This document shows, piece after piece, positions 1 to 28,180 of a stretch of DNA of 32,000 bases; position 1 is the first letter of the stretch; the number at the start of each line of letters is the position of its first letter. Source of the stretch: Cenarchaeum symbiosum A (GTDB lineage Archaea; Thermoproteota; Nitrososphaeria; Nitrososphaerales; Nitrosopumilaceae); contig DP000238.1 in assembly GCA_000200715.1 (NCBI GenBank), positions 924,593-956,592 on the forward strand, read 5' to 3'. The position numbers and the translations under genes were made by a program. Below the pieces are notes generated by a model that did no database searches, was not told the origin of the DNA, and saw only the letters and a program-made list of their open reading frames with translations.

Positions 1-1146
1 GCGGCATACGCGGACAGCGCAGAGTCCGGCAGTGGCGAGCCCGGCGGGATGATATTCTCTGCCGACGGGACCAGCATGTACCTGCTCGATGCAGATGATG
101 GCGGCGTGCGCGAATATTCCATATCGCCCCCGTACGGCTTTGACTCTGTAAGCAGTGTAATGCTCCACGAAATAGAGGGCGCGGCCAACCTTACAGGCAT
201 GACGTTCTCGCCAGACGGAACGGCCATCTTTATCTCGGGAGACGCAGGAATATTCCGGTACGAGCTGCCCGCAGAGTACTCGCCTGCCGGGGCGGTTCTG
301 TCCGGCAGGTTTACGCCGGCGGCCCCCGCGGGTGCTCCCGCCGATATAGAGATCTCAGCCGACGGGCTGCACCTTGTTGTGGCAGGCGCAGACGGCTCCA
401 TACACGGGTACGCGCTCGACAGACAGTCCGAGCTGGGGGCACGCGGCGTGCCCCGCGCGCTGAATCTCGGAGGGGGGTCGGTCCCCGCGGGCGTGGCGTT
501 CTCTGGGAATGGCTCCATAGCATACGTGGCAGATTCCGGCAGCGGCGAGGTTCGCGCGTACGGCCTTGCCTCCCCGTACGACATACAGGGGGCCGCATCG
601 ATCTTCAGCCTGAGCGTTCCTGCAGTGCCGGCAGGTGTCGCGCTATCGCCTGACGGCCAGAGGATGCTAGTGCCCGAGCCCGGCGGCATTCTTCAGTATG
701 TGCTGGGCACGCCCTACGACCTGTCGTCTGCCGTGCTCGGGGTCAGTTTTGTCCCGGACGAGGAGCCGGATCCCCGCGGGGTCGCGTTTACACCCGACGG
801 CCTGCGGATGTTTGTATCAGGGCCGGAATTCATCCACAGATACGGGCTTGCAGAGCCGTACAATGTAGACGACCCCGCATACGCGGGATCCGACGCGTCC
901 CCCATTCCGTCAACCGAGGGGGTGGCGTTCTCTGATCACGGCTATAGGATGTTTGTCGCCGGCGGGGGCGCTGTCAGCGCCTACTCCCTGGATGATCCGT
1001 TTGCCCCGTCCACTGCCATCCACGACGGGTCGTTTGACCTCGGGGACGGGGCGGACCCGCGGGGCGTGGCATTCTCTGCGGACGGCAGCAGGATGTTCGT
1101 TCCCGGCGGCGGAAATGAATTCGTGCTACAATATGCAGTGGGAACG
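1..1146 (+). repeat. Propeller module P0, with 8 blades visible and truncated by the window edge.
   Basis: The blade cores are MIFSADG, MTFSPDG, IEISADG, VAFSGNG, VALSPDG, VAFTPDG, VAFSDHG and VAFSADG. The module ends at the hairpin HRIDVC..GGC (nt 1162-1197). Confidence 0.75.
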
Positions 1147-4100
1147 CACCGCATAGACGTGTGCCCCGACGGGATGTCGGTCTTTGAGGGCGGCTGCACG
1201 ATGACGGGGCCCGCGGGCGGGCCGCGCCTCGTATCTGCAGCCATGGACCCCCGCACCGGGGAGCTCGAGATGTTCTTTGATAGGGCAATGGACCCGGGCC
1301 TATCCACGGGGATTGTGCAGATACGGGACGGTGTATCGCCTGCCGGCGGAACCACTCTTGCGGGCAGCTTCTCGGCAGGGCCGCGGCCCGAGGTATTACG
1401 CATCACGCTTGAGAACGATTCCAGGGCAGAGGCTGCAGAATTTGCAGACCCCCGGCTGTACTTTGGAAATGATGCACTGCAGGGCTTGGACGGGGGGTTC
1501 TTCCCTGCCGCCTTTGACGCGCCGCGCACGGAATTCACGGGAGTGCTCGACGTCTCCACATGGGATACAACGGTACGCGGCGTCACATTTTCGCACGACG
1601 GGCTCCAGGTGTTCACGGTAAGCCACGGCGACACCATAGTCCGCTTTGTGCTCTCCGAGCCCTACGACATAAACACCGCGTCGCATGCGAGGACGTACGG
1701 CGGCAACATACAAGACGAGGCGGGCAGCGGCATAAGGTTCTCGTCTGACGGGATGATCATGTTCACATCCGACTGGGGCAAGGACGCCATCCACAGGTAC
1801 GACCTTGTCTCGCCATACGAGCTCGACGGAAGGGTGCGCGGCGGCTCGTTCAATGTGAGGTCCCAGACCGGGACGCCCTTTGGCCTTGACTTTTCCGCAG
1901 ACGGCAGCATCATGTTTGTGATCTCATCCAATCCGGGCACGCTCTTCCGGTACGACCTTGGAATTCCATACGACGTGAGGTCCGCCGTGCTCGATAGCAG
2001 GCTTGACATATCGGGCGAGCTCACCGCCGGCCACGGAGTAGACTTTGCCCCCGACGGCATGAGGTTCATAGCGGCGGGCTTTGAGTTTGAGGGCCCCGAC
2101 GCGACCAGCACGGATGTGAACCAGTACGACTTGTCCGAACCGTACAACATAACGAGCGCCGTGCATGCAGGCGCGTATATTGTGCCCGCTGCACAGGGCG
2201 GGTTTACCAACGACATAGCCCTCTCGGAGGACGGGACGGTATTCCTCCTGGCCGACCCCCAGTTTGACGCAATACAGCAGTTCAGGCTAGCCGAGCCGTT
2301 TGACCTGCTGCCCCGCGCATACCATGCGTCGGCCAACATTACAGCGCATGCGCCAGAACCAGAAGACATAGTGATCTATGGAAACGGCTCGCGAATGCTC
2401 ATACTCGACGGGGATGCGGGCGGCGTATACGAATACGGGATCGCCGAGCCTCACGACGTGCGCACCATGTCATATACGGGGGTGTTCCAGAATGTGACAA
2501 GGGACGGGGGGAGCCCCTCGGGGCTGGCCCTCTCGCCCGACGGAACACTCATGCTGGTATCAGGATCCCCGCAGGGCCACGTCTCCGCGTATGCACTGGG
2601 AACAGCACACGACATATCGAGTGCGGCCTACTCGAGCAGCCTCAACGTCTCAGATATGGCCCCGGACCCCACCGGCGTGGACATATCCGATGACGGGTCG
2701 TGGCTGTTCGTCAGCAGGGAGAGGGGAAGCCGGGGGGACGTGCACCGGTACCATCTGGCCGAGCCGTTTGAGATAGGCACGGCGCTGTACCTTGATACCC
2801 TGGATACGGACAAGGATGGCAGGCCTTCCGAGGCCGCCCTTGGAACAGACGGCCTGTATCTGCTTGCGACAAATAGGGACCTTGGCGCGGTGGCCCACTA
2901 TACAATGGATGTGCCGTTTGAGATCGACGGCGGCGTGCTGGAATACGTCCTGGATGTATCCCCAGAAGAGGCGGCACCCGCGGGGCTTGATGTGGCAGAT
3001 GACGGGAGCAGCATGCACGTGGCCGGCGCCGGCGGCATCCACCAGTACCTGTTTGACGGCAGGCCTCTAGAGTACTGTTCGGAAGGGCAGTCCATATACA
3101 ACGGCGCGTGCGCCGGCGGGCTGCCGGAGGCGCCATCCATAACGTCTGCTGCCGCAATGCTGCAGGCTGGCGGCGGAACTATAGAGGTCCGCTTTGACAG
3201 GCAGGTTCGCGCCGATACCGCAAGGCCTTCGATAATAAACATAACCGACGGGGGAGCGGCTGCAGGGTTTGCGCTAAATCCCGGCAGCGCCGCGGGAACA
3301 GGCAACGTGCTGAGCTTTGCCATCGATGCCGATGGTGCCGCAGAGCTGGCGGGGCAGGCGGGGCCCGTGGTCCGCTTTGGCGCGGGCTCGCTGCTCGCGG
3401 ATAACGGGGCCGCGTTTCCCCCCGTCTTTGGGCTGAGCCCCCTCATGTACGAGGGGGCGGTTGATACGTCCGCCCAGGCGGCAAGCGTGGGCGGCGCCGC
3501 GTTTGGCGCCGGCGGCAGCAGGTTGTTTGTAGCCGGGGAAGACGGCATGATTCACAGGTACGACCTGCCTGTGCCCTTCTGGCCCGCCGGCGCCACCCAT
3601 GCAGAGAGTCATGACTTTGGGGCGGGCGGCCTGGCGGGGGTTGCCCTGTCGGATAACGGCCGCAGGATCTTTGTCATAAGCGGGGCGGACGGCCGCATAG
3701 ACCAGTACAACCTCGGGACCGCCTTTGATCTTGGAGGACCTGTCCACATGGGATCGTTCGATACAGGGGCGAATGCCAGCGGGATATACCTTGCGCCCGG
3801 CGGCGCAAACATGCTCGTCTCAAATTCCAGCGGGTCTGTGCACAGGTATGCGCTCGGAGCGCTCTTTGATGTGACCTCCGCCGTTCCCGCGGGCTCCGCG
3901 GATACGGGCGCTATAGAGCCCACCGGCGTCGCGTTCTCGGCTGACGGCCTAAACATGATAGTCTCGGACCGGTCGGGCATGCTGCACAGCTATGCCCTGG
4001 GCGTGGGCTTTGATCTGGGCAGCCTGGTCCGCGGAGGCACGTTTAGCTCGGCCGTGCAGTCGCCGTCCCCCGCAGACGTGGCGTTCTCGCCGGATGGAAC

Positions 4101-7100
4101 GACGATGATCATATCCGAGAGAACAGGATCCATCCATGCGTACTCGCTCAACTCGCACCCGGTCAGGATCTGCGCCGCCCCGGGCATGCTGTCCGGGGGC
4201 GCATGCGCCCCGCCGGAGATGCCGCGGATCACAGATGCCGCGCTGGCTGGCGGCGTGGTGGTGCTCGAGTTTGACAGGACGATAGACGTCTCGACTGTCA
4301 ACATATCGAGAATGCACGTGGCCGACGGGCTGAACCTGAGCAGGAGCGTGGACCTCCACGGGGGCATCCTCGAGACCGCCTCGGATCTTGACACGCTAAG
4401 AATCAGGCACTCCGGCCTGCTCGGTGCTGAATTTGGAGACGCCTCCATTCACTTTGACGCAGGGGCACTTGAGGATTCCATGGGCATGCCGTTTCCCCCC
4501 GCGTTCGGGCTGCCCCTGCCCGCCCACGTGGAGACGCTCTCCGGGGTAGTAGGGGAGAGACCTACCGGGATGGCCTTTGATCCCGGCGGCATGCGCATGT
4601 ACGTGACTGGGCGGGACCCGGGGGCTGTGCGCATGTACGCGCTTCCGGGGCCCTTTGATATAGCGGGGGCCGTCGAGGGTGACGCGTTTTCTGTAGAAGA
4701 GGACGGCGTCCCGACGGGCATCGCGTTTTCCCCGAACGGCAGCCGCATGTTCCTCTCGGGGAACACGGGCGATTCCATATACGGGTACAATCTATCCATC
4801 CCGTACGATGTGACTACTTCCGTGCACTCGGAGACCTTTTCGGTGGCAGGCCAGGACGCCTCCCCCACGGGCGTGGCGTTCTCAGATGACGGCATGCACA
4901 TGATGGTCTCCGGGGATGCAGGGGACTCTGTATACGCGTATGTGCTAGCAGAGCCGTACGACATAACGGGCGCCGTGCATGCGGGCACGCTCGACATATC
5001 AGGACAGGAGACGGGCCCAAACGATATAGCCATCGGGCCGCTGGGGATGCGCGTCTTTGTAACAGGGGGCGCAGGAGGCGCTGTGCACATGTACGAGCTT
5101 GCCGAACAGTACTCGCTTGACGGGGCGCTATACTCTGCAACGCTTGCAGTGGGCGGCGAGGATTCCGCCCCCGTGGGCTCTGCATTCTCGGGGCACGGCC
5201 TTGACATATTCGTAATTGGCAACCAGAACGACGGCGTATACGGGTACGACCTTGCCGCGCCCTACGACCTCTCACAGGCGGGCACAGACCTGTACACGCC
5301 GGATGCCTCCGGCGACATAAACCCCACCGGGGCCGTCCTGTCCCCTGACGGCGCGCACCTCTTCATAACTGACAGCACGGAGGTAATAGACCTGCGGCAC
5401 GACCTGGCAGTCCCCAATTACATAGCATCTGCGGGCCCCGCCGGGACGCTGCCGACGGGCACGGCGGGCATCACGGGGGCGGACATATCAGCCGACGGGA
5501 CGATGATCTTTGTCATGAACAACAGCGATGATACGGTGTACAGGTATTCCATGGATGCCCCGTACGATGTATCAGCGGCAGTCGAGGACATGACTCTCGA
5601 CGTCTCCGGTCAGGAGAGGACGCCGACGGGGCTAGACGTCTCATCTGATGGAACATGGATCTTTGTCACCGGGATTACCAGCGATTCTGTGCACAGCTAC
5701 CGCATGGGCACGCCCTTTGATATAGGCGGGGCCGCATACAATGCATCCCTGGCCGTCCAGGACTCCGCCCCGCAGGGTGTAGCAGTGTCGGACGACGGGC
5801 TGTTCATCATGGTGGCGGGAAACGAAAACGACAGGCTGTACAGGTATGCCATGTCCTCCCCGTTCGACCTGAATACCGCGTCATATGCCGGCTCGTTTTA
5901 CACGGGAATGCAGGATGTTACGCCGCGGGACGTCTCGTTTGCGGCAGGCGGCACATCGGTCCTTGTGCCCGGGAGCAGCAACGACTCTGTGCACAAGTAC
6001 CCCCTGAATGTGCACCGCCTGGAGGTCTGCCAGGAGGGCGAGCGGTTCACAAACGGGGCATGCTCCGTCAGGGCGGCAGGGAGCCCATCCATGGTATCCG
6101 CCTCGATAGACGGCTCCGCCCTACTCAGCATGCTGTTTGACCAGGAGATAGATGCAGGCACGGTGGACGCTTCGAGAATCCACGTCAGGGACGGGGGAGG
6201 GTTTGACGGAGGGATTGCCCTGTCCGGATTAAACGCCACCATAAGCGGGGGGGCAGTAGAGTTTGTCCTGGGGACGGCGGATGCCGCCGAGGTGCTCGGA
6301 TATGAAAACCCGAGGCTGCACTTTGATTCAGGCGCGCTATCCAGCTCCGGCGGGGGGAGCTTTCCGCGCCCCTACGGGCTGCCCCTGCCGGCATACAGGG
6401 AGAGCGTGCCCGCGCCAGGAGACGGGACTGTTCCCGGAGGGCTGGCCTTTTCGCCTGACGGCATGCGGATGTACACGCTGGGCACAGGCAATGGAACCGT
6501 AGAAGAGTACAGCCTTTCTGGCCCCTACGATTCGTCTGGCGCCACGCTCCAGGGTTCACTGTACATAGGGGAGAGGGAGGAGAGCCCCACCGGGCTTGCC
6601 CTTGGGGATGACGGCAGCGCCCTATTTGTCGTGGGCACCGGTTCCGGTTCTGTGCACATGTATGATCTAGACTCTGCATACTCTGTAGAGAGCGCCACAT
6701 ATGCAGGCTCGAGGACGGTATCGGGGCAGGAGGGCGAGCCTGCAGGGGTCGCCTTCTCGTCAAACGGCACGCTCATGTTCGTCTTCGGGGAACAGACGGG
6801 GCAGGTGCACAGGTACGGCCTAGAGCAGCCGTACCGGCCAGGCGGGTCCGGGTACCTTGGAGTGTTTGACCCCGGGGACCTGCCGGGAATCCCGCAGGAT
6901 ATCATATTCTCGGCCGACGGGAGCGGCATGTCGCTGCTCTATTCCGGGGAGGTGCCGGGGGTCATCTCGGATGCGGTGCACCATTACCGGCTGGGGGCCC
7001 CGTACGAGACGGCGGGCGCCGCATACGCGGGCAACTATTCTGTAACCCGGTGGGATGACGAGCCCCGGGGCGCGGCCTATGCGGCCGACGGCAGCAGCAT

Positions 7101-10100
7101 GCTGGTTCTGGGCGCAGAAGGCATCCACAGGTATGATCTTGCCGCCCCGTTTGATCCCGTCAGGACCATCAGCTCGGGGCGGACAGATATCAGCTCCGAC
7201 GTGCAGTACCCGATAGATGCGGCATTCTCCGCGGATGGTACGAGGATGTTCGCGCTGGATCTGTCCGATCCGCACATTCACGTGTACGAGCTGGGCACGC
7301 CGTTTGACGCGCGCACCGCAAGCCGCACGATGCTGCTCAACCTGACAGAAGAGCGCAATCCAAAGGGTATAGAGTTCTCAAGGGACGGCACGCAGATGAT
7401 GATCCTCGGCAGGGAAGAGCTGCACAGGTATTCCCTTGACGAGCCGTTTGAAACAGAGCCCGTCCATGTATCGACCCAGGATGATTTCATCTTTATCGTA
7501 AACAGGTTCAGCGGGATGGACTTTTCATCCGACGGCCTGAGCCTGTTCCATACCAGCCTTGCCTCCCTGCAGGTCCAGGCGTTCAGCCTCGGTGCTCCAT
7601 ACGACATACGGTCGTATGCGCACCTGCCGTCACTGAACATAGGGGAGCTCGGCAGCCAGCCCGTGGCGCTTGCGTTCTCTGAATCAGGCGACAGGATGTT
7701 TGTTCTCGAGGCGGGATCCGACGGCCTGCACGAATACAGCCTTGGAATACCGTACAACCTGGACACGGCGGAGCGCGCGGGCACCCATGTGGCAGGCGTA
7801 TTAGATGCAAGCATCGGCGGGATCTCGTTTTCAAAAGACGGGCAGAAGCTGTACATTCTCAGCGACGTGCCGGGCACAATAGACCAGCATGTTATCGGCA
7901 CGCGCCAGCTCAACACATGCTCGGCAGATCAGGCGGCATTTGAGGGGACATGCAGGAGGGAGCTTGCCGTGCACGGAAGCGACGAGCCGGCAGTAAGCGA
8001 GAACCCGGCGCGGCACATCGGCGACGAGTCCGCGGTGGCGGACTCTGCGGTGGCCGAGATCACCTTCCATCAGGCTCCCGTGTTCAACGGGGCATTTCTG
8101 GACATGGGGGGGAGAATCCTCGAGCTGGCCTTTGACGAGGAGATAGACGTGGCAAGGCCGGAGAGAATGAGCATAACTGATTCAAAAGACTATGCGCAGG
8201 GCACATCCCTCGCAGGCGCCTCGGTGGGCGGGGAAGGCGGGATAGTGCGCCTCGGCCTGACGGCAGAACAGATGGCCGGGATAGCCAGTTATCAGAGCCC
8301 CGCGCTGCGCCTCGGGGAATTGGCCGTGATCGGAACCGGCGGCGGCGCGTTTCCGGGCCCCTACGATATAGCAGATGCGGCATACGTGGGATCGGCAGAC
8401 GTGGCTGGCGACGCATCCCACCCCACCGGGGTTGCATTTGCCCCAAACGGCTCGAGGTTCTTTGTGGCCGACCCCACAAATGTAAGAAGCAGGGTGGTCC
8501 AGTACGGCTGGGACGGCTCCAACATAGCTAGCGCCGCGCCCGAGGGGTCGGCTGTGCTCACCGGGCCGGAGAACTCCCGCAACATAGAGTTGGGCGGCAT
8601 CTCGCTTGACCCGGATGGCGGCAGGCTGCTGGCCACCGATATCGAGGGGTCCGCCAGGGTGTACTCGTATTCGATAGAGGGGGCGGAGATAGGCGCGCTG
8701 GAGTATGACGGGGGCAGCCTCAACACAAACAACAGGGCGAGCTTCCCGACGGACGCGGTGGCGGGCTTTGGGGGGCACAGGCTGTTTGTAAGCAATTATG
8801 TCGACAGCAGGATACACGTGTACAACCTGGACAGACCCCACGACATAGGCGCAGGCAGCGCGGCATACAACGGGTCCGTGCAGACAGATGCGGGCGGCCT
8901 CAACGCAACGGGCGTCTTTGTATCCCCCAACGGGGCGCACATGATCGTGACCCTCCAGGACGGGCTCGACGGGGGGAGAATACTCCGGTACAACATGTCC
9001 ACGCCGTTTGACGCATACGGGATAATACAGGACGGCGCGCTGGATATTTCGGGCGAGACCGTGGCGCCGCAGGGCGCGGCCTTTACACCCGACGGCCTCG
9101 AGATGATAGTGGTGGATAGTGCCGTGGGAATGCTGCGCCATTATTCCCTGGGAATACGGAACATCACAGTATGCGAGGAGGGGATGATTGTAGACTCGGG
9201 AATGTGCACCGTAGAGAGGGCGGACGCGACGAGCAGGCCCGGGGTCTCGGACAGAGCTTCCATCCGGGAGATGGCGCCGACGGTCCTCTCGGTCTCGCTG
9301 TACGCGGACCCGGGGGTGCTCGAGATAGCCTTTGATGCGGCGATAAACTCCAGCCTGACCGACCCCTCTAAAATGCACATAAGGGACGGATCCGCGCCGT
9401 CGGGCGGGACATCCCTTGCGGGCGGGGGCGTCGTGGGCAGCACGCCAGAGAATGCGGCGGGGATAAGCCTCACGCAGGCGCAGCTCTCCGAGATATCAGG
9501 GTACGAAAATCCCACCCTGCATCTGGCCCCCGGCGCACTGCAGAGCATCGGGGGCCACGCGTACCCGCCCGGCGGCGGCCTGCCATTCCCGTCGGAATAC
9601 GCGAGCATAGACCTTTTGGAATACGACAACTCTGCGGCAGCGATAGCATTCTCAGAAGACGGCACAAGGATGTTCATGATCGGGGGCGAGTTTGAGACCG
9701 TGTTTGCATTCGATCTGTCCCGGCCGTTTATGATAGATACTGCGCGGCCCGCGGGATCATTCCATGCAGGCGACGATGTGAGGTTTGTAGAAGACATGGA
9801 GTTTGCGCGCGGCGGGGGATCTGTATTTGTCTCCGATTCATCGACCGACCTTGTACATGCGTACGCGCTTGGCGCCCCCTACGACGTGACCACGGCAGTG
9901 CGCGAACAGACGCTGGACACGGGTGCCGACGGGCTGGACGCCAGGGGGACTGCCTTTTCGCGCGACGGCAGGACGCTGTTTGTGCTCGATGGGGACGAGA
10001 CTGCCGCCAGGTATGCCACATCCTCGCCCTACTACATAGAGGGGGCCGAGTATGAAGGGGACGTACCCGTGGACGGGGCGCGCTTTGTGACCAATATGGA

Positions 10101-13100
10101 GTTCTCCAGGGACGGCACCACGATGCTGATAGTCGCGGTCAACACCAGCGGCGCCTTCAGCCTGGAGATACTCCAGTATGGCATGGATGCGCCATTCGAT
10201 GTGGGATCGGCCGAGCCCGAGGGCACGCTCGATACGGAGATACTGGGGGATCCGGTGGATGTGGCGGTCTCGTCAGACGGCCTGCGGGCATTTGCAATAG
10301 CCGGCGGCACCAGCACCGTGCACGGCTTCTCCCTGGCCGGCGCGTTTGACGCGGCCCGGTATCCGCCGGCAGAGGGCGCGTACGTGGGCGCAGAAGAGCA
10401 GGCGCCAACGGGCGCGGCAGTCTCCGGCGACGGGTCCATCTTTGTAGTCGGGGAATCTGGGATGATACGCAGGTATGACGCGGGCTCCGGCGGGTATGCA
10501 GAGGCGTATTCCGGCGCGGACAGAAACGCCACGGCGGCCACGGATATTGCATTCTCGGATGACGGCATGCTTGTCTTCATACTTGATGACGGCTCCGATG
10601 CGCTGTACGGATACAGGGCGGACTCGCCGTACGAGCTCGGCGGGCTGCCGCCGGCAGGCAGCCTGTATGTTGGGGATAATTCAAGCTCGCCTGCGGGGGC
10701 TGCATTCTCGGATGGCGGGGGCAGGCTCTTTGTGGCGGATGGCGCGACGGGAATGGTGCACGGGTATTCGCTTGCGGCGCCCTATGCGCTGGATGGCGCC
10801 ACATATACGGGGTCGTACGATTCTTCAGAACAGCAGGGCGCCCCCACCGGGGTGGCATTCTCGCCCGGTGGCATGGAGATGTTCATTTCAGGGGGGGAGT
10901 TTGTGCACATGTACGGGCTTGATGCGCCCTATGAGGTGGAATCGGCAGACAGTTCAGGCTCGTTCTATACGGGAAGGCATGACGGCGCCATACAGGGCGT
11001 GGACTTTTTCCCCGGCGGCTCGGCCATGGCGGTGGTCGGGGATGAGACGGACACCGTATACGTCTACGCGCTGGGCACGCACCACATCAGAGAGTGCGGT
11101 TTGGAGTATTCCTCCGGCGTGTGCATGCCTGATGACCTGCTTGCATACGGAAGGGCGGCGCCAACAGTGGCCGATTCGGCCGGGCTGGCGGCATTGTTCT
11201 TCCTGTCGGGAGGCGACGCGCCGGCGGTTCTAGATCTGCCCGGCGTGGGCGAGATCCCCATCCTGCCCATACCCGTGCCCGGCGATGACAGCCCGTCATT
11301 TGCGGAACTGCCCGGCGTGAAAGTCATGATGGGTGTAGGTGCTCCGAATGGAACGGACAGGCCGACCGTGGCAGAGGAGCACCGCCTGGTCCGGACCGTG
11401 TCGTTGTCCGGAAACGACACCCTGACAGTTGAGGAGAGGGACGACGTGGGATCCATGGCAAGGCCGAATGCAACGGATGCGCCGGCCATATCCGATCCGG
11501 TCAGGGTGGCCGTATTGTTCCATCTGGAGGGAGACGACGCGCCGGCTGTTCTAGATCTGCCCAGCGTGGGCGAGATGGCCAATCGGCCCATACCCGTGCC
11601 CGGCGATGACAGCCCGTCATTTGCGGAACTGCCCGGCGTGAAAGTCATGATGGGTGGAGATGCTCCAAATGGAACGGACAGGCCGACCGTGGCCGAGGAG
11701 CACCGCCTGGTCCGGACCGTGTCGTTGTCCGGAAACGACACCCTGACAGTTGAGGAGAGGGACGACGTGGGATCCATGGCAAGGCCGAATGCAACGGATG
11801 CGCCGGCCATATCCGATCCGGTCAGGGTGGCCGTATTGTTCCATCTGGAGGGAGACGACGCGCCGGCTGTTCTAGATGTGCCCGGCGTGGGCGAGACGGC
11901 CAATCGGCCCATACCCGTGCCCGGCGATGACAGCCCGTCATTTGCGGAACTGCCCGGCGTGAAAGTCATGATGGGTGGAGATGCTCCGAATGGAACGGAC
12001 AGGCCGACCGTGGCAGAGGAGCACCGCCTGGTCCGGACCGTGTCGTTGTCCGGAAACGACACCCTGACAGTTGAGGAGAGGGACGACGTGGGATCCATGG
12101 CAACCCCGAATGCAACGGATGCGCCGGCCATATCCGATCCGGTCAGGGTGGCCGTATTGTTCCATCTGGAGGGAGACGACGCGCCGGCTGTTCTAGATCT
12201 GCCCGGCGTGGGCGAGACGGCCAATCGGCCCATACCCGTGCCCGGCGATGACAGCCCGTCATTTGCGGAACTGCCCGGCGTGAAAGTCATGATGGGTGGA
12301 GATGCTCCAAATGGAACGGACAGGCCGACCGTGGCAGAGGAGCACCGCCTGGTCCGGACCGTGTCGTTGTCCGGAAACGACACCCCGTCAGTTGAGGAGA
12401 GGGAAGACGTGGGCGGCATGAGCCGGAATGCAGTGGATAGGCCGGCCATATCCGATCCGGCCAGGCTGTCTGCACAGTTCTTCCTGTCTGGAGACGACGC
12501 GCCGACGGTTCTAGATGTGCCCAGCGTGAGCGATCGCGCGGAGCACACTGGCAGCGGTGTGATGTCGCCGCCTGACCTGCAGGTGGTTTCCACCGTGCTG
12601 GACAGCAGGGGCGTACTGGAGATAACCTTTGACGGATTGGTGGTCGCAGAGAATATAGACTACAACCTGATTAGCATTACCGACGGGTATGCGCCAGCCG
12701 GGCGCATACTGCTGTCCCCCGGCGAGCTCACCCATTCCGGGGAGAACAGTCTGCGCTATACCCTGGGCGAGAACAAGTGGAACCTTGTGCGGAATTATGC
12801 GGATCCCCGGCTGCGGGTCGACATCGGGGCACTCGGGCCGGGCCTGCCCGATGTAGGATACCGGCTGCCGGATTCATTGTACCCGTACGAGCCGGATGTT
12901 GTATCCGCGGCCCTGCCCAACAACACCGAGGGAGCGCATCAGGGACTTGCATTCTCGAGGGACGGCACGGTGATGTTCACGGTGGGTCTGAATCTGGACA
13001 CGGTGTTCCGGTATGTGCTAGAACAACCCTACGACATATCCTCGGCAAGAATTGAAGGAAACTACAGCGTGGGCGACCGGGAGGTCAACCCGCGCGGACT

Positions 13101-16100
13101 GGCGTTCTCCCCGGACGGGCTCAAGATGTTCGTCGTGGGAAACGATGCGGTGCACCAGTATGCACTGGGCTCGCAGTTTGGCTTCAGCCCCGCCCCGTCG
13201 TTCGAGCATGACTTTAGTGTGGCCGAGGACGGCCTGGTCACGGGAATAGACTTTGGGAATAACGGCACCAGGATGTACCTATCGGGCGCAAACAACAGCG
13301 CCATCCAGCAGTACGACCTCTCTACACCGTACGATATAGAGGCGCAGCCCGTCCATGCGGGGAACTTTAGCACCGCCGGCCAGTATGACTCGCCCCGCGG
13401 GGTAGTAGTCTCCGGCGACGGCCGCATCATGCTGGTACTGGGCCAGCCGGACGACAAGGTGTTCATGTACGGGATGGACGAGCCGCACGATATATCCACC
13501 GCAGGGTATGTGGGCTCCCACGAGATCACAAACTCGGAGCGCAACCCGGAGGGAATAGCGGCGTCGGACGACGGAAGGCTGCTCTTTGTCACGGGCACCG
13601 TGACCAACAGTGTGTTCAGGTACAATCTCGGGGCGCCGTACGATGCGGCCCGGGACGGGGCGGGGGCCGGGCCCACCCTGACCAATACCATCAGGGCCCC
13701 TACGGGGATTGTATTTTCCCCTGACGGCCTGCAGTTGTTCCTCTCCTCCCACGGTGCAGATCTTGTACAATCGTACAACCTGACAGCCCCCTATGGCGTG
13801 GCGACGGCCACGCCTGCGGACACTTATAATCTTCCCGTGGACCCCGGCCGCAATCGTCCATTTGATGTGGAATTTTCCACGGATGGCCTCCTGATGTTTA
13901 CCACCGGGCGTAACCCCCTAAGACTGTATTCGTTTACGCTGGATGCGCCGTACAACATATTGTCGGCCGTGGAGAATAGCAGGTACGACATAACGATAGC
14001 GCCGTTGAATACTCAGACGGGCGTGATATTCAACCCCAATGGGACCATCATGCTGCTTGCAGCGGGAACCCGCGGCGGCGGCATCATACAGGAATACAAC
14101 CTCCCCAGCCCGTACAACATATCCGGCGCCGTGGCGGCCCCGTTCAGCATAACGGACGGGCTGGTCCCGCTGGGGATTACATACTCGTCGGACGGGCACA
14201 GGCTCTTCGTCATGGATGATGCCGAGGTGGTGCACAGGTACGACCTTCTAACGCCGTATACGCTGAGGGATGCCCTGTTTGTGGACTCTGGTGAATTCAA
14301 AGACGGTGCCCAGCCCAACGACTTGGCGTTCTCCGGTGACGGCGGAAAGATGTTCATAGCCTGGGGCAACGATAACAGGATAGAGACGTACAACCTGACA
14401 GCCCCCTACGACATAACCTCGTCTGCCAGCCCCGTGTCCCTTTCAGCGGACACCGGCTCCCCCACCCCGAGCGACGTCTCCGTGAGCGCAGACGGCAGGA
14501 CGGTGCTTGTATTCAACAATGTACGGGACGCGGTCATTGGGCACAGCCTACGCCAGCCGTACGACCTGTCCACACCCGCATCATCGGTCCAATCGGCAGA
14601 GGCCGACAACACCAATGTAAACGCGATGGAGTTCTCACCCAACGGGACGCTGATGTTCCTGTCGGGATGGAACGAGACAAGTCCCATAGTACAAGGACGA
14701 ACTGTCTATACGTACAACCTGAGCGCCCCGTTTGACGTATCCACGTTCCAGCGCATAGGCGAGTTTCACACCCGGGATGCGGTAAATGCGCTGACGGGAG
14801 ACGCCAGTATAAGCAGCCCCTCGGCAATGAGGTTCTCGGCTGACGGGACGGATCTGTATCTAATAGACGAAATCGATCAGTTGATACATCACTTTAGCCT
14901 GAGCAGCCCGTACCTGCTTGACAATACGACTGCCTATGTGGAAGCCCTTGATGTCAATCCGCCGGAGAGCAACCCCTCCGGGCTTGAACTGTCGGCCGAC
15001 GGCACAAGGCTGTTCATCACGGGGGCCGGCAGTGACCGCATACGCCAGTACGACATGGATATCGCGTACAACCTCTCCACCGCCGTGCATTCGGAATCGA
15101 TCAACGCGGTCGGGCTCGACAGCCAGGCCCGTGGGCTTGCATTCTCAGAGGACGGCTCTAGATTGTTCTTTGTCGGGGATGATACGGATCGGATATACCT
15201 GCTTGATCTGGCGGCCCCCGAGGTCATACGTGTACTGCCCGGCATGTTAGATGATGTGATATCTGTGACGCACAACGTAACGGCGGTGGACAGGCCCTCT
15301 ATCTCCGATGGCCGCCCAGACTCCACGGTTAAACCCATATCCGCCGGAGACGCCCCGTCATTTGTGGATGCGCCCGGCGTGGACGCCATGATAGGTAGGG
15401 ATGTGATGGATGCGCCGGCCGTATCCGATCCGGCCAGGCTGGCTGTATCGTTCCACCTGACGGGAGACGACGCGCCGGCGGTTCTAGATGTGCCCGGCGT
15501 GGGCGAGACGGCCAATCGGCCCATACCCGTGCCCGGCGATGACAGCCCGTCATTTGCGGAACTGCCCGGCGTGAAAGTCGTGATGGATGTAGATGCTCCA
15601 AATGGAACGGACAGGCCGACCGTGGCCGAGGAGCACCGCCTGGTCCGGACCGTGTCGTTGTCCGGAAACGACACCCTGACAGTTGAGGAGAGGGAAGACG
15701 TGGGCGGCATGAGCCGGAATGCAGTGGATAGGCCGGTCATATCCGATCCGGTCAGGGTGGCCGTATTGTTCCATCTGGAGGGAGACGACGCGCCGGCGGT
15801 TCTAGATGTGCCCGGCGTGGGCGAGATGGCCAACCAGTCCATACCCAGGCCCGCCGAGGATAGACCGTCATTCATGGATCTATCCGGTGTGGACTTTGCG
15901 GCGGTCAGGAATGCGGCAGACGCGCCGGCCGTGTCCGACGAGCCCAATCTGGCCCGGAGCACATCCATATCCGGAAATGATTCGCCATCATTCGAGGATA
16001 TGCCCGGCGTGGGCGGCATGGTAGCCCCGAATGCAGCGGATGCGCCGGCCATATCCGATCCGGCCAGGGTGGCCGTATTGTTCCATCTGGAGGGAGACGA

Positions 16101-18441: not shown

Positions 18442-18501
18442 GAGTCAGGGGTGCGGATTCTGCCCCGGCGGCCCGTTTCCCGCCAGGTGTGCGCCATTGG
18501 A

Positions 18502-18508
18502 TTTTATA
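18502..18508 (+). promoter_or_regulatory. TATA-like box (TTTTATA) about 25 nt upstream of the ATG at 18530.
   Basis: This is the only AT-rich heptamer in a GC-rich spacer. Its spacing matches the other putative promoters in this window. Confidence 0.5.
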
Positions 18509-18529
18509 CAAGGCGTGCATGGCCTGTGC

Positions 18530-18994
18530 ATGGTCCGGCTCCGCTACTGGAAGCTCAGCCCCGACGAGGTCGCGGGGCTCAGTTACCCCGAGGAGATGCT
18601 GCTAAACTGGGACATAAAATGCACAAGGGAGCCGGAGATCGAGGGGCGCTTTATAGGCGTCTTTATGTACAAAAACGGGGCCCCCATCGACTATACGCCG
18701 ACCAAGGGCATTGCATACTTTTACAACAACATAAGCAGGGAGGAGCTGCCGACGATAACGGGCTTTCTCAAAAAGAGGTTCGGCGGCGAAGAGCTGGAAA
18801 AGGGCGAGAGGATCTTCCTCAAAAATTCCAGGGAGACGTATTCCCCGGCGGACATAGCCGGGCTGGCCCGCGAGCTGGAGGTGGAGTTTAGCACAAAAGC
18901 GGTCATAACGCTAGAGTTCCAGGGGCTTGAAGAGGAGAAGGCCAAGGAGTCCGGCCTGCCCGAGGCCAAGCTGCTCCCCATACCTGGAAAGTAG
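18530..18994 (+). CDS. Hypothetical protein (154 aa).
   Basis: The ORF has ordinary protein-like composition (MVRLRYWKLSPDEVAGLSYPEEM...). I chose the ATG at 18530 over the track's TTG at 18497 because the TATA-like box lies inside the extension. I recognise no family. Confidence 0.7.
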   Translation: MVRLRYWKLSPDEVAGLSYPEEMLLNWDIKCTREPEIEGRFIGVFMYKNGAPIDYTPTKGIAYFYNNISREELPTITGFLKKRFGGEELEKGERIFLKNSRETYSPADIAGLARELEVEFSTKAVITLEFQGLEEEKAKESGLPEAKLLPIPGK

Positions 18995-19022
18995 ATAAGC
19001 CGGGGGATGGCACAGGGCCCGT

Positions 19023-19817
19023 ATGTCCGAGATGCAGTTCGGCAAGCACCTCGACGAGCTCCGGCGCAGGGCCCTCCGGGTGGTCGTCATAACGGGGGCT
19101 GTCACCGCCTTTTTGCTGGCCTTCCACGCCGAGCCCGCCGAGCTGTGGGGGGCCACCGTCTACTATCCGGTGCCCGACCCGCTGCACAACATGGCCGCCC
19201 AGATAACCGACCACATGAGGGCCGCCCTTGTGCCCGAGGGCGTCGAGCTGATACAGACCACGCCGGGGCAGGCGTTCTTTGCGCAGGTGTACATAGCCGC
19301 CCTCGTCGGGGTCACGGTCTCGACGCCCGTGGCCGTCCGGGAGCTGGCGGCATTCCTCAGGCCCGCCCTCAGGGAAAGCGAGATCCACGTGGGCCGCTCG
19401 ATATCCGCGCCGGCTGTCGGGCTCTTTGCCGCAGGGTGCGCGTTTTCCTATATCGTGGTCATACCATACATACTTGACTTTCTGTACAAGATAGGCGAGT
19501 CTGCCGGGATAACCACGTTTCTCAATGTAATGGACTTTGTGTCGTTTGTGCTGCAGTTCCTGCTCGCCTTTGGGATATCGTTCCAGCTGCCCCTGGTCAT
19601 GTTTGCCGTCACCGCGTCCGGCATGGTGGACGGCCGGTTCTGGAGGAGGAACATCAGGTATGCGCTACTGGGGATAGTGATATTTGGCGCGGCCATAACG
19701 CCCGACGGGTCCGGCGTCACCATGTGGTTTGTAGCGGGGCCGATGATTGGATTGTACTTTGCGGGCATGTTCTTTGCCGAGAGGCGGGAGCGCAAGGAGA
19801 AGAGCGCCGGGGCCTAG
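19023..19817 (+). CDS. tatC: Sec-independent (twin-arginine) protein translocase subunit TatC.
   Basis: The N-terminus carries the HLDELRRR motif and the protein has a six-TM profile. It also shows the ..FAFGISFQLPLVMF.. and ..AAITPDG.. signatures typical of TatC. Confidence 0.9.
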   Translation: MSEMQFGKHLDELRRRALRVVVITGAVTAFLLAFHAEPAELWGATVYYPVPDPLHNMAAQITDHMRAALVPEGVELIQTTPGQAFFAQVYIAALVGVTVSTPVAVRELAAFLRPALRESEIHVGRSISAPAVGLFAAGCAFSYIVVIPYILDFLYKIGESAGITTFLNVMDFVSFVLQFLLAFGISFQLPLVMFAVTASGMVDGRFWRRNIRYALLGIVIFGAAITPDGSGVTMWFVAGPMIGLYFAGMFFAERRERKEKSAGA

Positions 19818-19889: not shown

Positions 19890-20081
19890 ATGTTCCCGCT
19901 GGCAGGCTTTATCGCAGGGCAGGAGTGGATCTTTATCATAGTTATAGCAGTCGTGCTCATATTCGGGGCAAAAAAGATCCCCGAGCTTGCAAAGACCTTT
20001 GGAAAGGCAAAGGGCGAGTACGAAAAGGGCAAGATAGAGGCAGACAAGGAGCTCAAGGAATTCAAAGAGGGCAAGGACTAG
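19890..20081 (+). CDS. tatA: Twin-arginine translocase subunit TatA/E.
   Basis: The sequence MFPLAGFIAGQEWIFIIVIAVVLIFGAKKIPELAKTFGKAKGEYEKG shows the classic single TM, the FG-x-KK-[IL]-PE hinge and an amphipathic helix. I prefer the ATG at 19890 to the track's TTG at 19872. Confidence 0.85.
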   Translation: MFPLAGFIAGQEWIFIIVIAVVLIFGAKKIPELAKTFGKAKGEYEKGKIEADKELKEFKEGKD

Positions 20082-20488
20082 GCGGCGCCTGCCAGCCCGT
20101 CTATGGCATCCTTTAGCCCGTCTGTTATCCTGCCCTTTGAGAGCAAGCCCCTCATTCCCATCCGGATGTCGGCGTCTATACTTATCATGGTCCCGCCTGT
20201 GGCTGGCTCGTACCTTTCGGTGATGCGGCTGCCCTTTGCATCGCCTCCCAGTATGTCCATTCTGTGCAGGCCCGGCGGCTCTGCCGTGTGCCTTGCGGTT
20301 ATGACCAGCTCCCTCCCTCCCAGCAGGCGGTGCTCTTCTGTGACGGTCTTGCCGTTTCTAGAGGAGAGCACGCGGACCGACGGGTAATATTCCGGGAGCA
20401 GCTCTGCGAGCCGCGCATAATCCGTGGCCAGACAGAATACTGTGCCCCTGTCCGCCCGGACCAGCCTCTCAAAGGCAATCTTGGTCAT
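20078..20488 (-). CDS. SRPBCC/START-like (polyketide cyclase/Bet v1-fold) family protein.
   Basis: It is 136 aa. The length and alternating beta/long C-terminal helix pattern (ERLVRADRGTVFCLATDYARLAELLPEY..) are typical of SRPBCC proteins. A TATA-like CTTTTAAC (20511-20518, minus strand) lies about 26 nt upstream. Confidence 0.6.
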   Translation of the reverse strand: MTKIAFERLVRADRGTVFCLATDYARLAELLPEYYPSVRVLSSRNGKTVTEEHRLLGGRELVITARHTAEPPGLHRMDILGGDAKGSRITERYEPATGGTMISIDADIRMGMRGLLSKGRITDGLKDAIDGLAGAA

Positions 20489-20545
20489 GATATTGTTCCA
20501 TGATATAGGAGTTAAAAGCCTGACCTTGGGGACAGGTGCGCTAAA

Positions 20546-21118
20546 TCAGGCAGAATCCGCGGGGCCCTTTCCCCATCTAGGGTACAGGTCGTGCTCTATG
20601 CCGAACTGGTCGAGGCACTTGCCCACGCCGTGATCTACCATGTCGGATACGGAGCCCGGGCGGGTATAGAACTCGGCCATTGGCGGCAGTATCACCACTC
20701 CCAGCCGGGCAAGCTTGAGCATGTTCTCGAGGTGTATCGCGGAGAGCGGCGATTCTCTTGCCATCAGGACCAGTTTGCGCGATTCCTTGATGGTCACACC
20801 TGCAGCCCTGGACAAAAGAGTCTCGTCATATCCGTTTGCTATGCTGGAGAGCGTCTTCATGCTGCAGGGGGCGATGATCATCCCGCCGGTCCTGTGTGTG
20901 CCGCTGGACACGCTGGCTGCCATGTTGTGCGCGCCAGATACCGTGCCCGCAAGTGATGCGACCTGCTCGGCCGTATAGGATGTCTCCATGGGTATGCACT
21001 TTGCGCCCCATTCGCTCATTATCAGGTGGGTGTGTATTCCAAGCTCCCGGAGCACCTCTAGCATGCGTATCCCGTAGATGACGCCGGTGCTGCCGGATAT
21101 CCCTATTACCAGTTCCAC
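20546..21118 (-). CDS. ubiX: Flavin prenyltransferase UbiX/Pad1 family (prFMN synthase).
   Basis: The motifs ELVIGISGSTG.IYG.R.LE, MIIAPCSMKTLSSIANGY..L..RAA.V.LKE.RKLVL..RE.PL and HLENML.L...G..I.PP match UbiX. The start is ambiguous. GTG at 21118 gives a canonical N-terminus (M-ELVIGISG) and has a TATA-like CTAAAATA (21140-21147, minus strand) about 25 nt upstream, whereas the track start is GTG at 21187. Confidence 0.85.
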   Translation of the reverse strand: MELVIGISGSTGVIYGIRMLEVLRELGIHTHLIMSEWGAKCIPMETSYTAEQVASLAGTVSGAHNMAASVSSGTHRTGGMIIAPCSMKTLSSIANGYDETLLSRAAGVTIKESRKLVLMARESPLSAIHLENMLKLARLGVVILPPMAEFYTRPGSVSDMVDHGVGKCLDQFGIEHDLYPRWGKGPADSA

Positions 21119-21655
21119 GGCCTGCGTTATGATGGCCCGTATTTTAGCCGTTTGCGCCCCCGTGTATCTAGTGTCCGCATCACACACGGGTTTGGCGGCC
21201 TAGGACCAGGCTCTTCTAAATAATCCTGATCTCTAAAATAATTTGCCAAGCGGTTTATTCAACGCCAGCAGGCCAATCTCCCAAATCTCACAAGTTTCAT
21301 CCTCCCGGCGGGCCGCTGGCCAAGCCTAACTGTGCCACATGCGCAGGGGTTTTCGGGCAGGTGGTTCAAACCAGCAAATTTCCCAGATTCCCCCTTTCGG
21401 AGGCCGGCCTTTTGCCTGCCATGCATGTCGCATTTACCCAATCCCCCCTTCAGTGAACCGACCCACTGCACTTGGTCCGCGTGCAGTTTTCATGGCCAAA
21501 CAGTATGTTTACGCATCCAGTGTCCCGGGGCAAGCATGCCGCATTTCTCGGAGAATGAATGTCCCACCAGGTAGTTTTTCTCGCAAATGCTTCTTGCGCC
21601 TGTCCTCCATCAACCTAATGAGGGGGCAAACACTCATGCAAAACACATCAGTACC

Positions 21656-21665
21656 TTTTTAAATA
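21656..21665 (+). promoter_or_regulatory. TATA-like box (TTTTTAAATA) about 24 nt upstream of the ATG at 21685.
   Basis: It marks the left edge of the low-GC islet. Confidence 0.5.
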
Positions 21666-21684
21666 CCTCTGGTCATTTTCTATC

Positions 21685-22239
21685 ATGGATTATAAAAAAA
21701 TAAATGCTCAGGACGCTGTTCTTTTAATCGTACATGCCAACAACGATGAACTGCGTGGTAGAACGATCCTCCAAAAGCTGGCATATTTTTGGACGCTTTC
21801 CATTTCTCCGATTATCAATGTTAGCTTCGAGTCCCATTACTATGGCCCGTATAGCGCTGAAATACGCCATGCACTGGACATAACTGTAGCAAAGTCGCTG
21901 ATGGATGAAAGCATCAGATCCGAGGAGACTTATAACAGATATTGTTATAAAATTACTGAAGACTCCAAAGATCTTGTCCGGACTATTGCAGAGGAGTATA
22001 AAGACGAATTCAAACAAATTAGTCACATTATAGCCACCTGTAAAGAATTTGAGTGCCTTCAATACAAAGAACTTTCACACGCAGTAAAGGCCTACTATCT
22101 ATATGACAAAATGGCCGAAAAAGAAAAAACTAAATCCGCAGAAGTCATGGTTGGTAAAGCACGTTCGTTTGGCTGGAGTGTTGAACAGAAAAAAATTCAA
22201 AACGGAATCAAACTCCTCGAAAAACTTGAGCTTATCTGA
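21685..22239 (+). CDS. Panacea/DUF4065-like (SocA-type antitoxin domain) protein encoded in a low-GC islet.
   Basis: The segment RTILQKLAYFW...(x18)...FESHYYGPYSAEIRHAL matches my recall of the Panacea signature (K-L-Q-K-L-x-Y, then F-x-A-W-x-x-G-P-x-x-x-x-[VIL]-Y). Two 60-nt lines I counted inside the gene are 37-38% GC, versus 67% for a flanking line. The family call is from memory and has not been searched. Confidence 0.6.
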   Translation: MDYKKINAQDAVLLIVHANNDELRGRTILQKLAYFWTLSISPIINVSFESHYYGPYSAEIRHALDITVAKSLMDESIRSEETYNRYCYKITEDSKDLVRTIAEEYKDEFKQISHIIATCKEFECLQYKELSHAVKAYYLYDKMAEKEKTKSAEVMVGKARSFGWSVEQKKIQNGIKLLEKLELI

Positions 22240-22254
22240 AAACGATTGTTACGG

Positions 22255-22259
22255 TTTTT
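22255..22259 (+). terminator. Oligo-T (T5) 16 nt after the stop of the Panacea-like gene.
   Basis: Archaeal termination commonly uses short T-runs. This run is short, so confidence is low. Confidence 0.3.
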
Positions 22260-22370
22260 ACAGCAAGAGACTGAGATATATGCGATGATAATGTGCAGAT
22301 CCTTCGGCCCGGGGCCGTCAAATCCGTGCGTGGTGTGAATATCCACCCCGTGCAGCGGGGGCCCAGGTAC

Positions 22371-22514
22371 CTACCGCCCGTCCGGTCCGGGCCCGTCGCC
22401 GGGGGGGATCTCCTTCGCCTCGCGCCTCCTCTTGAGCCACAGGCTGATGCACCCCGCCGCCATTGCCGTAAGCAGTATGATGCCCGTGATCTGCAGCTCT
22501 GCGTGGTAGAACAA
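22371..22514 (-). CDS. Possible small membrane peptide (47 aa from TTG, or 30 aa from the ATG at 22463). It is speculative.
   Basis: The translation is LFYHAELQITGIILLTAMAAGCISLWLKRRREAKEIPPGDGPGPDGR*, which is one clean TM helix followed by KRRR (positive-inside). It falls below the 60-aa track cutoff and I saw no obvious TATA box. Confidence 0.2.
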   Translation of the reverse strand: MFYHAELQITGIILLTAMAAGCISLWLKRRREAKEIPPGDGPGPDGR

Positions 22515-22680
22515 CCGTATCTCGTATCAGGGGCGAATAAATTCCTTGCCGGATGGGGAGGGCGCCAATGGCTGCCGGCGCACCCCCTGCGGGCCTTGCA
22601 GGGCGTCAGTCAAGCCGGGGGCGGGCGTGCTCTGGGCGGCATTTGGACCCACTTCTGCACAAAGGACAGGGGTTGGCTTT

Positions 22681-22688
22681 AAAAAAAA
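22681..22688 (-). terminator. T8 run on the minus strand, 24 nt downstream of a short minus-strand ORF fragment that stops at 22712.
   Basis: A8 on the + strand equals T8 on the minus strand. It may terminate a decayed gene or an ncRNA lying in 22.7-23.1 kb. Confidence 0.3.
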
Positions 22689-23117
22689 CTGAAAAGAGCA
22701 AGACCGTTGAGCTAGCCTGCAGATATGAGGTCAAAGGTGTGCATTGCGTACACCGTGTCTACGGCATTGACCATAGTACCGGATGCAGAAACTGCGGGGG
22801 ACAAACGGCCGGGAACATCACAGCCTGCAGGGCAGGTATTCTAGTCCGTACAGATGGCAGGGATGTGACTGTCCGGTCTTAGGATGGGGGCAGACATGGC
22901 ATTCATGACCGCCGTACTTTGTCATCAACACAGGCGCCCTGCCGATCATGGATCAGGCAGATCATACGCCAGATCCAGCAGGCATGCAGAGGGGTAGGCC
23001 CTGTACATCGATCACTGCTCCACGAAGGCCTTCAGGCGTAAGAGAGGTACATGCCTGCCTCCAAATGGAGGGCGTCAACTACTACCAAGGGCGATTTCAT
23101 GGCCAATCTTGGAAAGG

Positions 23118-23128
23118 ATTAATAATTA
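23118..23128 (+). promoter_or_regulatory. TATA-like box (ATTAATAATTA) about 24 nt upstream of the ATG at 23147.
   Basis: It is an AT-rich block in otherwise GC-rich DNA. Confidence 0.45.
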
Positions 23129-23146
23129 CTATTTGCTGGGCGTGGC

Positions 23147-23800: not shown

Positions 23801-23842
23801 TACTAGTCTACACAGCACAGCCATCTACAGTAGAGCGAAATC

Positions 23843-23851
23843 ATAATTATA
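23843..23851 (+). promoter_or_regulatory. TATA-like box (ATAATTATA) about 26 nt upstream of the purP ATG.
   Basis: The spacing supports ATG 23873 as a leaderless start. Confidence 0.5.
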
Positions 23852-23872
23852 CCGCCCGGATTTGTACAATAC

Positions 23873-25410: not shown

Positions 25411-25476
25411 ATAAACATGCCACGGGGACGCCGGTTCAACCCTTAAAATGCCGGCCGCCGGCCGGCGGGTTGTACC

Positions 25477-27306: not shown

Positions 27307-27319
27307 GGGCAGGATACAG

Positions 27320-27325
27320 TTTAAT
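27320..27325 (+). promoter_or_regulatory. TATA-like TTTAAT about 26 nt upstream of the GTG at 27349.
   Basis: The spacing is consistent with the other genes in the window. The box itself is weak. Confidence 0.35.
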
Positions 27326-27348
27326 GTGAAGGAGTACAAAGTGCGCCC

Positions 27349-28161: not shown

Positions 28162-28180
28162 GTGCAGGAGCACGGGATCT

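Follow-up and report, generated by a model that had tools for sequence, protein, structure and literature searches.

A giant gene with runs of β-propeller-like blades

The DNA analyzed here, a 32,000-nucleotide stretch (contig DP000238.1, positions 924,593 to 956,592; hereafter the window), opens with a single giant open reading frame (ORF) on the forward strand, whose product contains long runs of repeats resembling β-propeller blades. Frame 1 is open from base 1 to a stop codon at 18439-18441, and the 5' end of the gene lies beyond the left edge of the window. The encoded protein is acidic, with 13.9% aspartate plus glutamate (9.0% aspartate), 4.7% arginine and 0.3% lysine; such avoidance of lysine is unusually strong for 6,000 amino acids (aa).

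A sequence-only reading of the window had counted S-x-D-G blade cores between consecutive Cys hairpins. To recount the blades, a hidden Markov model (HMM) was trained on strict S-x-D-G seeds and then run back over the protein. It returned exactly the earlier numbers, with eight runs that hold 8 (cut by the window edge), 10, 5, 10, 10, 5, 10 and 15 blades, 73 altogether, and a mean and median period of 51 aa, close to the 50 aa estimated before. The regular blades follow the consensus '..P.G[VIL].[FL]S.DG..[ML]F[VI].G.....[VI]..Y.L..P[YF]D...A...G...V'. Their cores are less uniform than had been described, since S-x-D-G is literally present in only 42 of the 73 blades; the others carry variants such as SxNG, TPDG or GxGG, and the final glycine alone is invariant. 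The delimitation of modules by hairpins also held in part: one hairpin (six C-x10-C, one C-x8-C) follows each of runs 1 to 7, but the 15-blade run has no closing hairpin, sits between two arrays of 107-aa acidic tandem repeats and extends to about 15270, not 15215. The gene and its blade modules, as delimited with the blade HMM, are:

1..18441, + strand: single giant ORF, 6146 codons visible, ending with the stop codon
1..1161, + strand: module 1, 8 blades visible, run cut by the window edge
1495..3075, + strand: module 2, tail-like pre-strand and 10 blades, read as 2 x 5
3409..4170, + strand: module 3, pre-strand and 5 blades, read as one five-bladed propeller (also from structure prediction and a phage fold match)
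4483..6027, + strand: module 4, pre-strand and 10 blades (structure also predicted)
6355..7917, + strand: module 5, pre-strand and 10 blades
8344..9171, + strand: module 6, pre-strand with the full 'PYDIADAAYVGSADV' tail motif and 5 blades, the second very divergent
9556..11094, + strand: module 7, pre-strand and 10 blades
12859..15270, + strand: module 8, pre-strand and 15 blades, read as 3 x 5

With run lengths spread evenly modulo 5, all seven complete runs would be divisible by five with a probability of (1/5)^7, or about 1e-5. By the rule that emerges from the wider family, the full run of module 1 would comprise 10 or more blades.

Run lengths in related proteins

A word-indexed homologue search with module 3 gave only three matches, and an exhaustive profile search was needed to find the family. 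When 1.84 billion cluster representatives were searched with a profile built from the window's 14 five-blade units, 87,209 matched at E<=1e-3 and 6,216 reached E<=1e-30. The best 150 matches, mostly proteins of 1,000-6,000 aa, were pooled with the three earlier ones into a set of 153 relatives, for which the HMM was rebuilt on 4,240 blades.

Among the 550 internal runs of these relatives, 412 were divisible by five, compared to 20% expected by chance. Their lengths were 5 (341 runs), 10 (38), 15 (22), 20 (2), 25 (6) and 30 (3) blades, and another 56 runs had 4, 9 or 14 blades, which is consistent with one divergent blade having been missed. Runs reaching a protein end included lengths of 20, 25, 35, 40, 45 and 65 blades. 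Odd multiples of five (5, 15, 25, 35, 45, 65) are thus common in the family, which indicates that the unit is five and not ten. In four relatives (P0004, P0008, P0016, P0024), blades of a 'TPWDISTA' subtype follow one another without interruption in runs of 40 to more than 80.

A putative signature of ring closure

The modules share a fixed order, in which a Cys hairpin is followed by a β-rich spacer of about 100 aa, a tail-like segment ('FPxP-F/Y-G/D...') and the blades. The final blade of every module ends directly after the 'V..Y.L' strand, without the PYD tail of the regular blades. A last blade that lacks its tail, together with a tail-like strand ahead of blade 1, is the layout expected for Velcro closure: the strand preceding blade 1, homologous to the outer-strand tail ('P-Y/F-D...A...G.h.V'), would probably complete the fifth blade, which ends after its third strand.

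The same layout is found throughout the relatives. Last blades are shortened in 83% of cases, compared to 3% of internal blades, and the segments preceding blade 1 score 7.9 bits on an HMM of the tail, compared to 0.7 bits for controls (p=6e-99). Runs of at least 10 blades are punctuated in phase with the run start: truncation affects 20.5% of the blades at positions 5, 10 and so forth, as against 4-6% at the other four phases, and the tail score is lower at every fifth blade (Mann-Whitney p=8e-4). This pattern suggests that the modules with 10 and 15 blades are partitioned as 2 x 5 and 3 x 5, in which case the tail of blade 5 (and 10) would serve the next propeller as its leading strand and very short linkers would join the propellers.

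Predicted structure of the five-blade unit

We predicted the structure of residues 1026-1405, which cover a hairpin, the spacer, the five blades of module 3 and the next hairpin, with AlphaFold2 (AF2). The model had a predicted local distance difference test score (pLDDT) of 88.3, exceeding 94 over most of the propeller, and a predicted template modeling score (pTM) of 0.81. In the propeller, the β-strands form five groups of three to four, with a 7-residue pre-strand in addition.

In Foldseek searches against the viral models of BFVD, two proteins matched the whole propeller, one from an uncultured phage with a root-mean-square deviation (rmsd) of 1.4 Å over 249 columns and one from Lentibacter phage ICBM2 with 1.6 Å over 261 columns; a further match bears the name baseplate wedge subunit. 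Comparison with solved 7-bladed WD40 structures in the PDB gave template modeling (TM) scores of only 0.36-0.42 and rmsd values of 5-15 Å, a likeness at the level of blades that is uninformative on ring size.

Taken together, the multiples of five in the family, odd ones included, the Velcro layout, the punctuation at every fifth blade, the AF2 model and the close phage matches argue, with good though not complete confidence, for a five-bladed propeller as the folding unit. This is what the sequence-only reading had proposed, with one to three propellers per module and about 15 per chain; given 73 blades plus the part cut off at the window edge, the visible chain would hold at least 15. The closure within sets of five that it had asked about would likewise fit the pre-strand, the truncated last blade and the degeneration of fifth blades in longer runs, as far as these can be judged from sequence.

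Alternative ring sizes and modes of closure

The best surviving alternative, though in our estimate an improbable one, is that the 10-blade modules form single 10-bladed rings like that of Vps10/sortilin, with the 5- and 15-blade modules arranged otherwise or paired. Sortilin shares with four of our modules the number of ten blades, and its motif bears a superficial likeness to S-x-D-G. Of the seven complete modules, four carry 10 blades, but five is by far the commonest run length in the family and odd multiples abound. A pre-strand and a truncated blade 10 would suit one big ring as well as two small ones; the degeneration of the junction type at blade 5 would not, nor would relative P0001 (610 aa, ten blades), in which the N-terminal marker 'TLFPTFVDSFSV' recurs exactly ahead of blade 6. 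Sortilin blades are defined by the Asp-box (SxDxGxTW), whereas here the S-x-D-G core is not followed by x-T-W, and no match to Sortilin-Vps10 was found in Pfam. An AF2 model of module 4 reached a pLDDT of 76.9 and a pTM of 0.58, with good pLDDT in each half and low confidence at the junction of blades 5 and 6, which would fit two rings of uncertain relative orientation. The best PDB matches of this model were tandem double propellers (Aip1, Utp21, PWP2), and sortilin was absent from the best 50 Foldseek PDB matches. The 10-bladed option that the sequence-only reading had left standing beside the five-bladed one is thus disfavored.

Less probable again is the idea that multiples of five reflect only the unit of gene amplification, a copied five-blade cassette, and that the blades close as 6-8-bladed propellers across module borders. 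The blades are indeed YVTN/lactonase-like, all solved relatives found by sequence have 6-8 blades, and cassette amplification is real elsewhere in the gene, in the 321-nt acidic repeats. Yet pairs of blades at a distance of five show no greater likeness than other pairs do. Scores for same and different pentad positions in the window protein differ by 0.7 units, a difference that was as high in 250 of 2000 permutations; in 36 long runs of relatives, whole-blade similarity has no peak at a lag of five, and the series of blade lengths has no clean period. The rule of five was therefore not left behind by the copying of a five-blade cassette, and the preservation of blade number while sequences diverge points to a folding constraint. 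Moreover, the commonest form in the family is an isolated five-blade module between unrelated domains, which cannot form a 6-8-bladed ring by itself, and the confident, compact five-blade model lies about 1.5 Å from the phage domains while fitting 7-bladed structures poorly.

Phage tail fibers with the five-blade domain are normally oligomeric, which could be taken to mean that each five-blade unit is a half or partial ring and needs oligomerization to close, for instance as dimers forming 10-bladed rings. Oligomeric propellers assembled from fragments are known (PMC6805158). Partial propellers, some engineered and some natural, can close in this manner, but we consider this mode of closure highly improbable here, as every unit has its own closure elements, the monomer model is confident, and pairing between chains would be difficult for propellers that follow each other at 10 aa on a single chain.

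The interpretation as chained five-bladed propellers is itself weakened by several observations. The confident AF2 model was offered five blades only, so that no other blade number was possible, and ring closure and the pairing of the pre-strand with the last blade are deduced from sequence patterns and summary features of the models; the model with ten blades is only moderately confident. About 15% of the runs in relatives are neither a multiple of five nor one short of it. Module 6 totals five only with a very weak blade 2 (aa 2862-2913), which scores 2.6 bits with the window-trained HMM and is missed by the family-wide HMM; its spacing and its 'ISLDPDGGRLLATD...VYSYSI' sequence still lead us to count it as a blade. 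Directly after strand C of the last blade comes a short strand, 'HPVRI', which might serve as the fourth strand, in which case the Velcro would differ in detail. Lastly, the phage gene context supports a binding role by analogy only.

Relationship to known β-propellers

Judged by their sequences, the blades are of the YVTN/lactonase/WD40 type, and the five-blade unit belongs in the YVTN/lactonase lineage as a variant whose blade number departs from the standard; propellers of this type are expected to have 6-8 blades. In Pfam searches, the giant protein matched SGL, Lactonase, WD40, NHL and families like them, in each case only in part. On some segments, SGL (PF08450) reached 61-63 bits (cutoff 26.3) and Lactonase (PF10282) 61.6 bits (cutoff 21.7), scores that are sums of partial matches covering only 2-4 profile blades. 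We rejected a full-length 6-7-bladed domain of either family, as the best stretches cover only profile positions 127-199 of 246 and 144-322 of 344, and the units here have five blades. WD40 (PF00400) scored 21.8-29.7 bits (cutoff 27) on single short stretches; in view of these weak matches and of the low TM scores to WD40 propellers, we do not regard the blades as members of that family. The YVTN repeat model TIGR02276 was likewise rejected, with 16.9 bits on module 4 against a cutoff of 27.85, as was a seven-blade YVTN propeller, the runs here being 5, 10 and 15 blades long and the commonest run in the family five. All matches in NCBIfam, to YVTN and PQQ propellers, were below threshold, and PHROGs contained no family for the window module or for relatives P0002 and P0003. 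There is no specific family for the five-blade unit in Pfam or NCBIfam and no solved member in the PDB, and our literature searches found no description of a five-blade family or of the giant Cenarchaeum proteins.

Ranked by profile, the best relatives of known structure were a Nostoc WD40 protein, of which only short pieces matched, and a Methanosarcina surface-layer protein with a 7-bladed YVTN propeller. The latter (1L0Q, from Methanosarcina mazei; Jing et al. 2002, cited in PMC6697440) is the best full-domain PDB sequence match, with E=3.8e-20 over profile positions 14-255. It shares with the window protein an archaeal cell-surface setting, a 'SPDGxxhYV' blade core and the combination of a propeller with immunoglobulin (Ig)-like or PKD spacers. 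The two differ in that 1L0Q has one propeller with seven blades of about 42 aa, whereas the protein described here would have at least 15 propellers with five blades of about 51 aa, each with the extra 'PYDxxxA' tail segment.

Five blades per ring are also found in tachylectin-2 and other proteins, such as GH43, olfactomedin and the platform of the phage phi11 receptor-binding protein. Tachylectin-2 has a sugar-binding site on each blade, a plausible functional analogy for the propellers of the window. The likeness to tachylectin-2 drawn in the sequence-only reading extends to blade number and not to sequence: no segment matched the Pfam Tachylectin family at E<=0.1, and neither tachylectin nor GH43 was found in Pfam, among the 61 PDB sequence matches or among the best 50 Foldseek PDB matches. 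These five-bladed proteins furthermore have one propeller each, as opposed to a chain.

Several propellers on one chain, with short linkers and Velcro-type closure, are known from tandem WD40 double propellers (Aip1, 1NR0; Utp21; PWP2; Nostoc 2YMU). These have 7+7 blades and WD40 features, and their similarity to our ten-blade model is low (TM about 0.3, rmsd 13-23 Å). They are intracellular scaffolds and are not known to contain 15 propellers.

In marine phages, the ~255-aa five-blade domain occurs singly, in Lentibacter phage vB_LenP_ICBM2 gp51, in Roseobacter phages CRP-9, -13, -2 and -738, and in Synechococcus phage S-SKS1, with 32-44% identity to relative P0003. The gene for ICBM2 gp51 (L021 3276-4487) lies between tail assembly chaperone genes and adjoins a tail protein. 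These tail-fiber-like proteins are uncharacterized and carry a lone propeller on a phage tail module, unlike the chain of at least 15 in the window. The ICBM2 podophage has three successive pairs of a hypothetical or tail protein and a tail assembly chaperone, and the five-blade domain is in the middle protein.

Relatives in ammonia-oxidizing archaea and proposed function

The closest named relatives are two proteins of Cenarchaeum symbiosum A, CENSYa_0917 (5278 aa) and CENSYa_0849 (5246 aa), which are annotated merely as hypothetical. Like the window protein, both have hairpins, Ig-like spacers, runs of 5, 10 and 15 blades, acidic repeats and the C-terminal domain. A cassette at 12200-16700 of the window (aa 4068-5567), comprising module 8 and parts of both repeat arrays, is 56% identical to residues 3385-4997 of CENSYa_0917, whereas for the rest of the modules the identity to any Cenarchaeum paralogue is only 25-30%. 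The low identity outside module 8, about 27% to the CENSYa proteins, marks the window protein as a distinct paralogue, or as an orthologue from a related organism, and the difference between cassette and remainder suggests module-wise exchange or mosaic evolution of the giant genes. A genome scan with a single pentad placed more distant relatives in several genomes of Nitrosopumilus, where they often occupy many loci.

We propose, with a probability of roughly 80%, that the product of the gene is a giant chain of five-bladed β-propellers, likely a multivalent surface adhesin. It would be an acidic, secreted or cell-surface protein of a Cenarchaeum/Nitrosopumilus-type archaeon, and its structural unit would be a propeller of about 255 aa, made of YVTN/lactonase-type blades of about 51 aa. 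Modules of one to three such propellers would be spaced by a disulfide-type Cys hairpin and an Ig-like domain and, near the C-terminus, by long stalks of acidic 107-aa repeats. Conserved motifs of the blades would play a structural part, and the specificity of each individual propeller would reside in its variable loops. The most likely role would be that of an adhesin or recognition fiber that binds host, prey or matrix ligands, with one face per propeller. A surface location is suggested by the Ig-like spacers, Cys hairpins and acidic repeats, which are typical of extracellular proteins, and by relative CENSYa_0849, which begins with a signal-peptide-like sequence. The occurrence of the five-blade unit in tail-fiber-like genes of marine phages would, by analogy, suggest a ligand-binding role.

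On the broader scale we can only be tentative, and put the following at somewhat short of even odds: the profile matches may represent an uncatalogued, very large family of strictly five-bladed propellers of the YVTN/WD40-hub type with their own Velcro, which in ammonia-oxidizing archaea and marine bacteria is strung into giant surface proteins, an unbroken run reaching at least 13 propellers and a whole protein at least 15, and which serves as a single receptor-binding module in marine phage tail fibers. If so, it would be a new propeller lineage, the first natural 'poly-propeller' fiber and possibly a recognition module common to phages and the cells they encounter. Set against curated knowledge the architecture is unusual, as the sequence-only reading had remarked, yet it is widespread in uncharacterized sequences, as the 6,216 representatives at the stricter threshold illustrate, and so it is not unique to this chain. 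A blade number fixed at five across thousands of proteins would offer a natural system for studying what sets blade number, and chained propellers one for asking how neighbors on the same chain avoid mis-pairing. In practical terms, some of the largest 'hypothetical' genes of sponge-associated and marine ammonia-oxidizing archaea, including those for CENSYa_0917 and CENSYa_0849, would gain a domain-level annotation, and the giant proteins of these archaea would become prime candidates for host or particle attachment.

Linker domains, acidic repeats and C-terminal region

The segments between and beyond the modules are as follows:

1162..1197, + strand: Cys hairpin 1 (CPDGMSVFEGGC), aa 388-399
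1198..1494, + strand: linker domain 1, β-rich, Ig-like, about 100 aa, with the pattern 'FD..ID....I.I.DG'
3076..3111, + strand: Cys hairpin 2, aa 1026-1037
3112..3408, + strand: linker domain 2, Ig-like, all-β in the AF2 model
4171..4206, + strand: Cys hairpin 3, aa 1391-1402
4207..4482, + strand: linker domain 3, Ig-like
6028..6063, + strand: Cys hairpin 4, aa 2010-2021
6064..6354, + strand: linker domain 4, Ig-like
7918..7953, + strand: Cys hairpin 5, aa 2640-2651
7954..8343, + strand: linker domain 5, the longest, with an acidic insert at its N-terminus
9172..9207, + strand: Cys hairpin 6, aa 3058-3069
9208..9555, + strand: linker domain 6, Ig-like
11095..11124, + strand: Cys hairpin 7 (C-x8-C), aa 3699-3708
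11208..12533, + strand: acidic tandem repeat array 1, 321-nt (107-aa) unit, 4.1 copies, 94% matches
12562..12858, + strand: linker domain 7, Ig-like, ahead of module 8
15408..17101, + strand: acidic tandem repeat array 2, 321-nt unit as in array 1, 5.3 copies, 80% matches
17674..18438, + strand: C-terminal region, with poly-Gly, a β-rich Cys-pair domain of about 170 aa, a Pro/Glu-rich (PEPEPE-type) spacer and a short amphipathic end 'GVIGMIVDFIRSVLG'

Pfam searches gave no match for the window protein's linker domains, its acidic repeat or its C-terminal domain; the linker of relative P0010 matched Big_5 at E=0.003, below the cutoff. The two arrays that bracket the 15-blade module are built from one acidic, Pro/Asp-rich repeat, similar copies of which occur in CENSYa_0917, and the high nucleotide identity of the copies implies recent amplification or gene conversion. 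The C-terminal region, which had no NCBIfam match either, is also found in CENSYa_0917 and other relatives, where similar Cenarchaeum ends occur (e.g. '...LIDFFRSLFG'); it may be an anchor or a sorting/anchoring signal.

Neighboring genes

Downstream of the giant ORF, the window encodes TatC, a UbiX-type flavoprotein, PurP (DUF1246/DUF1297), a CBS-TrkH protein, a DUF6659 protein and archaeal EF-2, a set of genes that identifies the source as archaeal. The G+C content of the giant gene is 59-65% (window positions 1-19000), compared to 51-58% for the downstream housekeeping genes (20000-32000), a difference that could stem from a composition rich in Gly, Ala, Pro and Asp or from a separate evolutionary history. 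The gene for the TatC translocase (19023-19817, + strand) follows the giant gene on the same strand at a distance of about 580 bp. The N-terminus of CENSYa_0917 contains the sequence RRR, and such giants may use either Tat or Sec for export.

Further downstream, an ORF at 28896-29276 (+ strand) encodes 126 aa, in which a hydrophobic segment at the N-terminus precedes about 15 'MMD(D/E)x' repeats (DNA repeat at 28984-29217). The predicted Met/Asp-rich product could be secreted and bind metal, such as copper, in an ammonia oxidizer.

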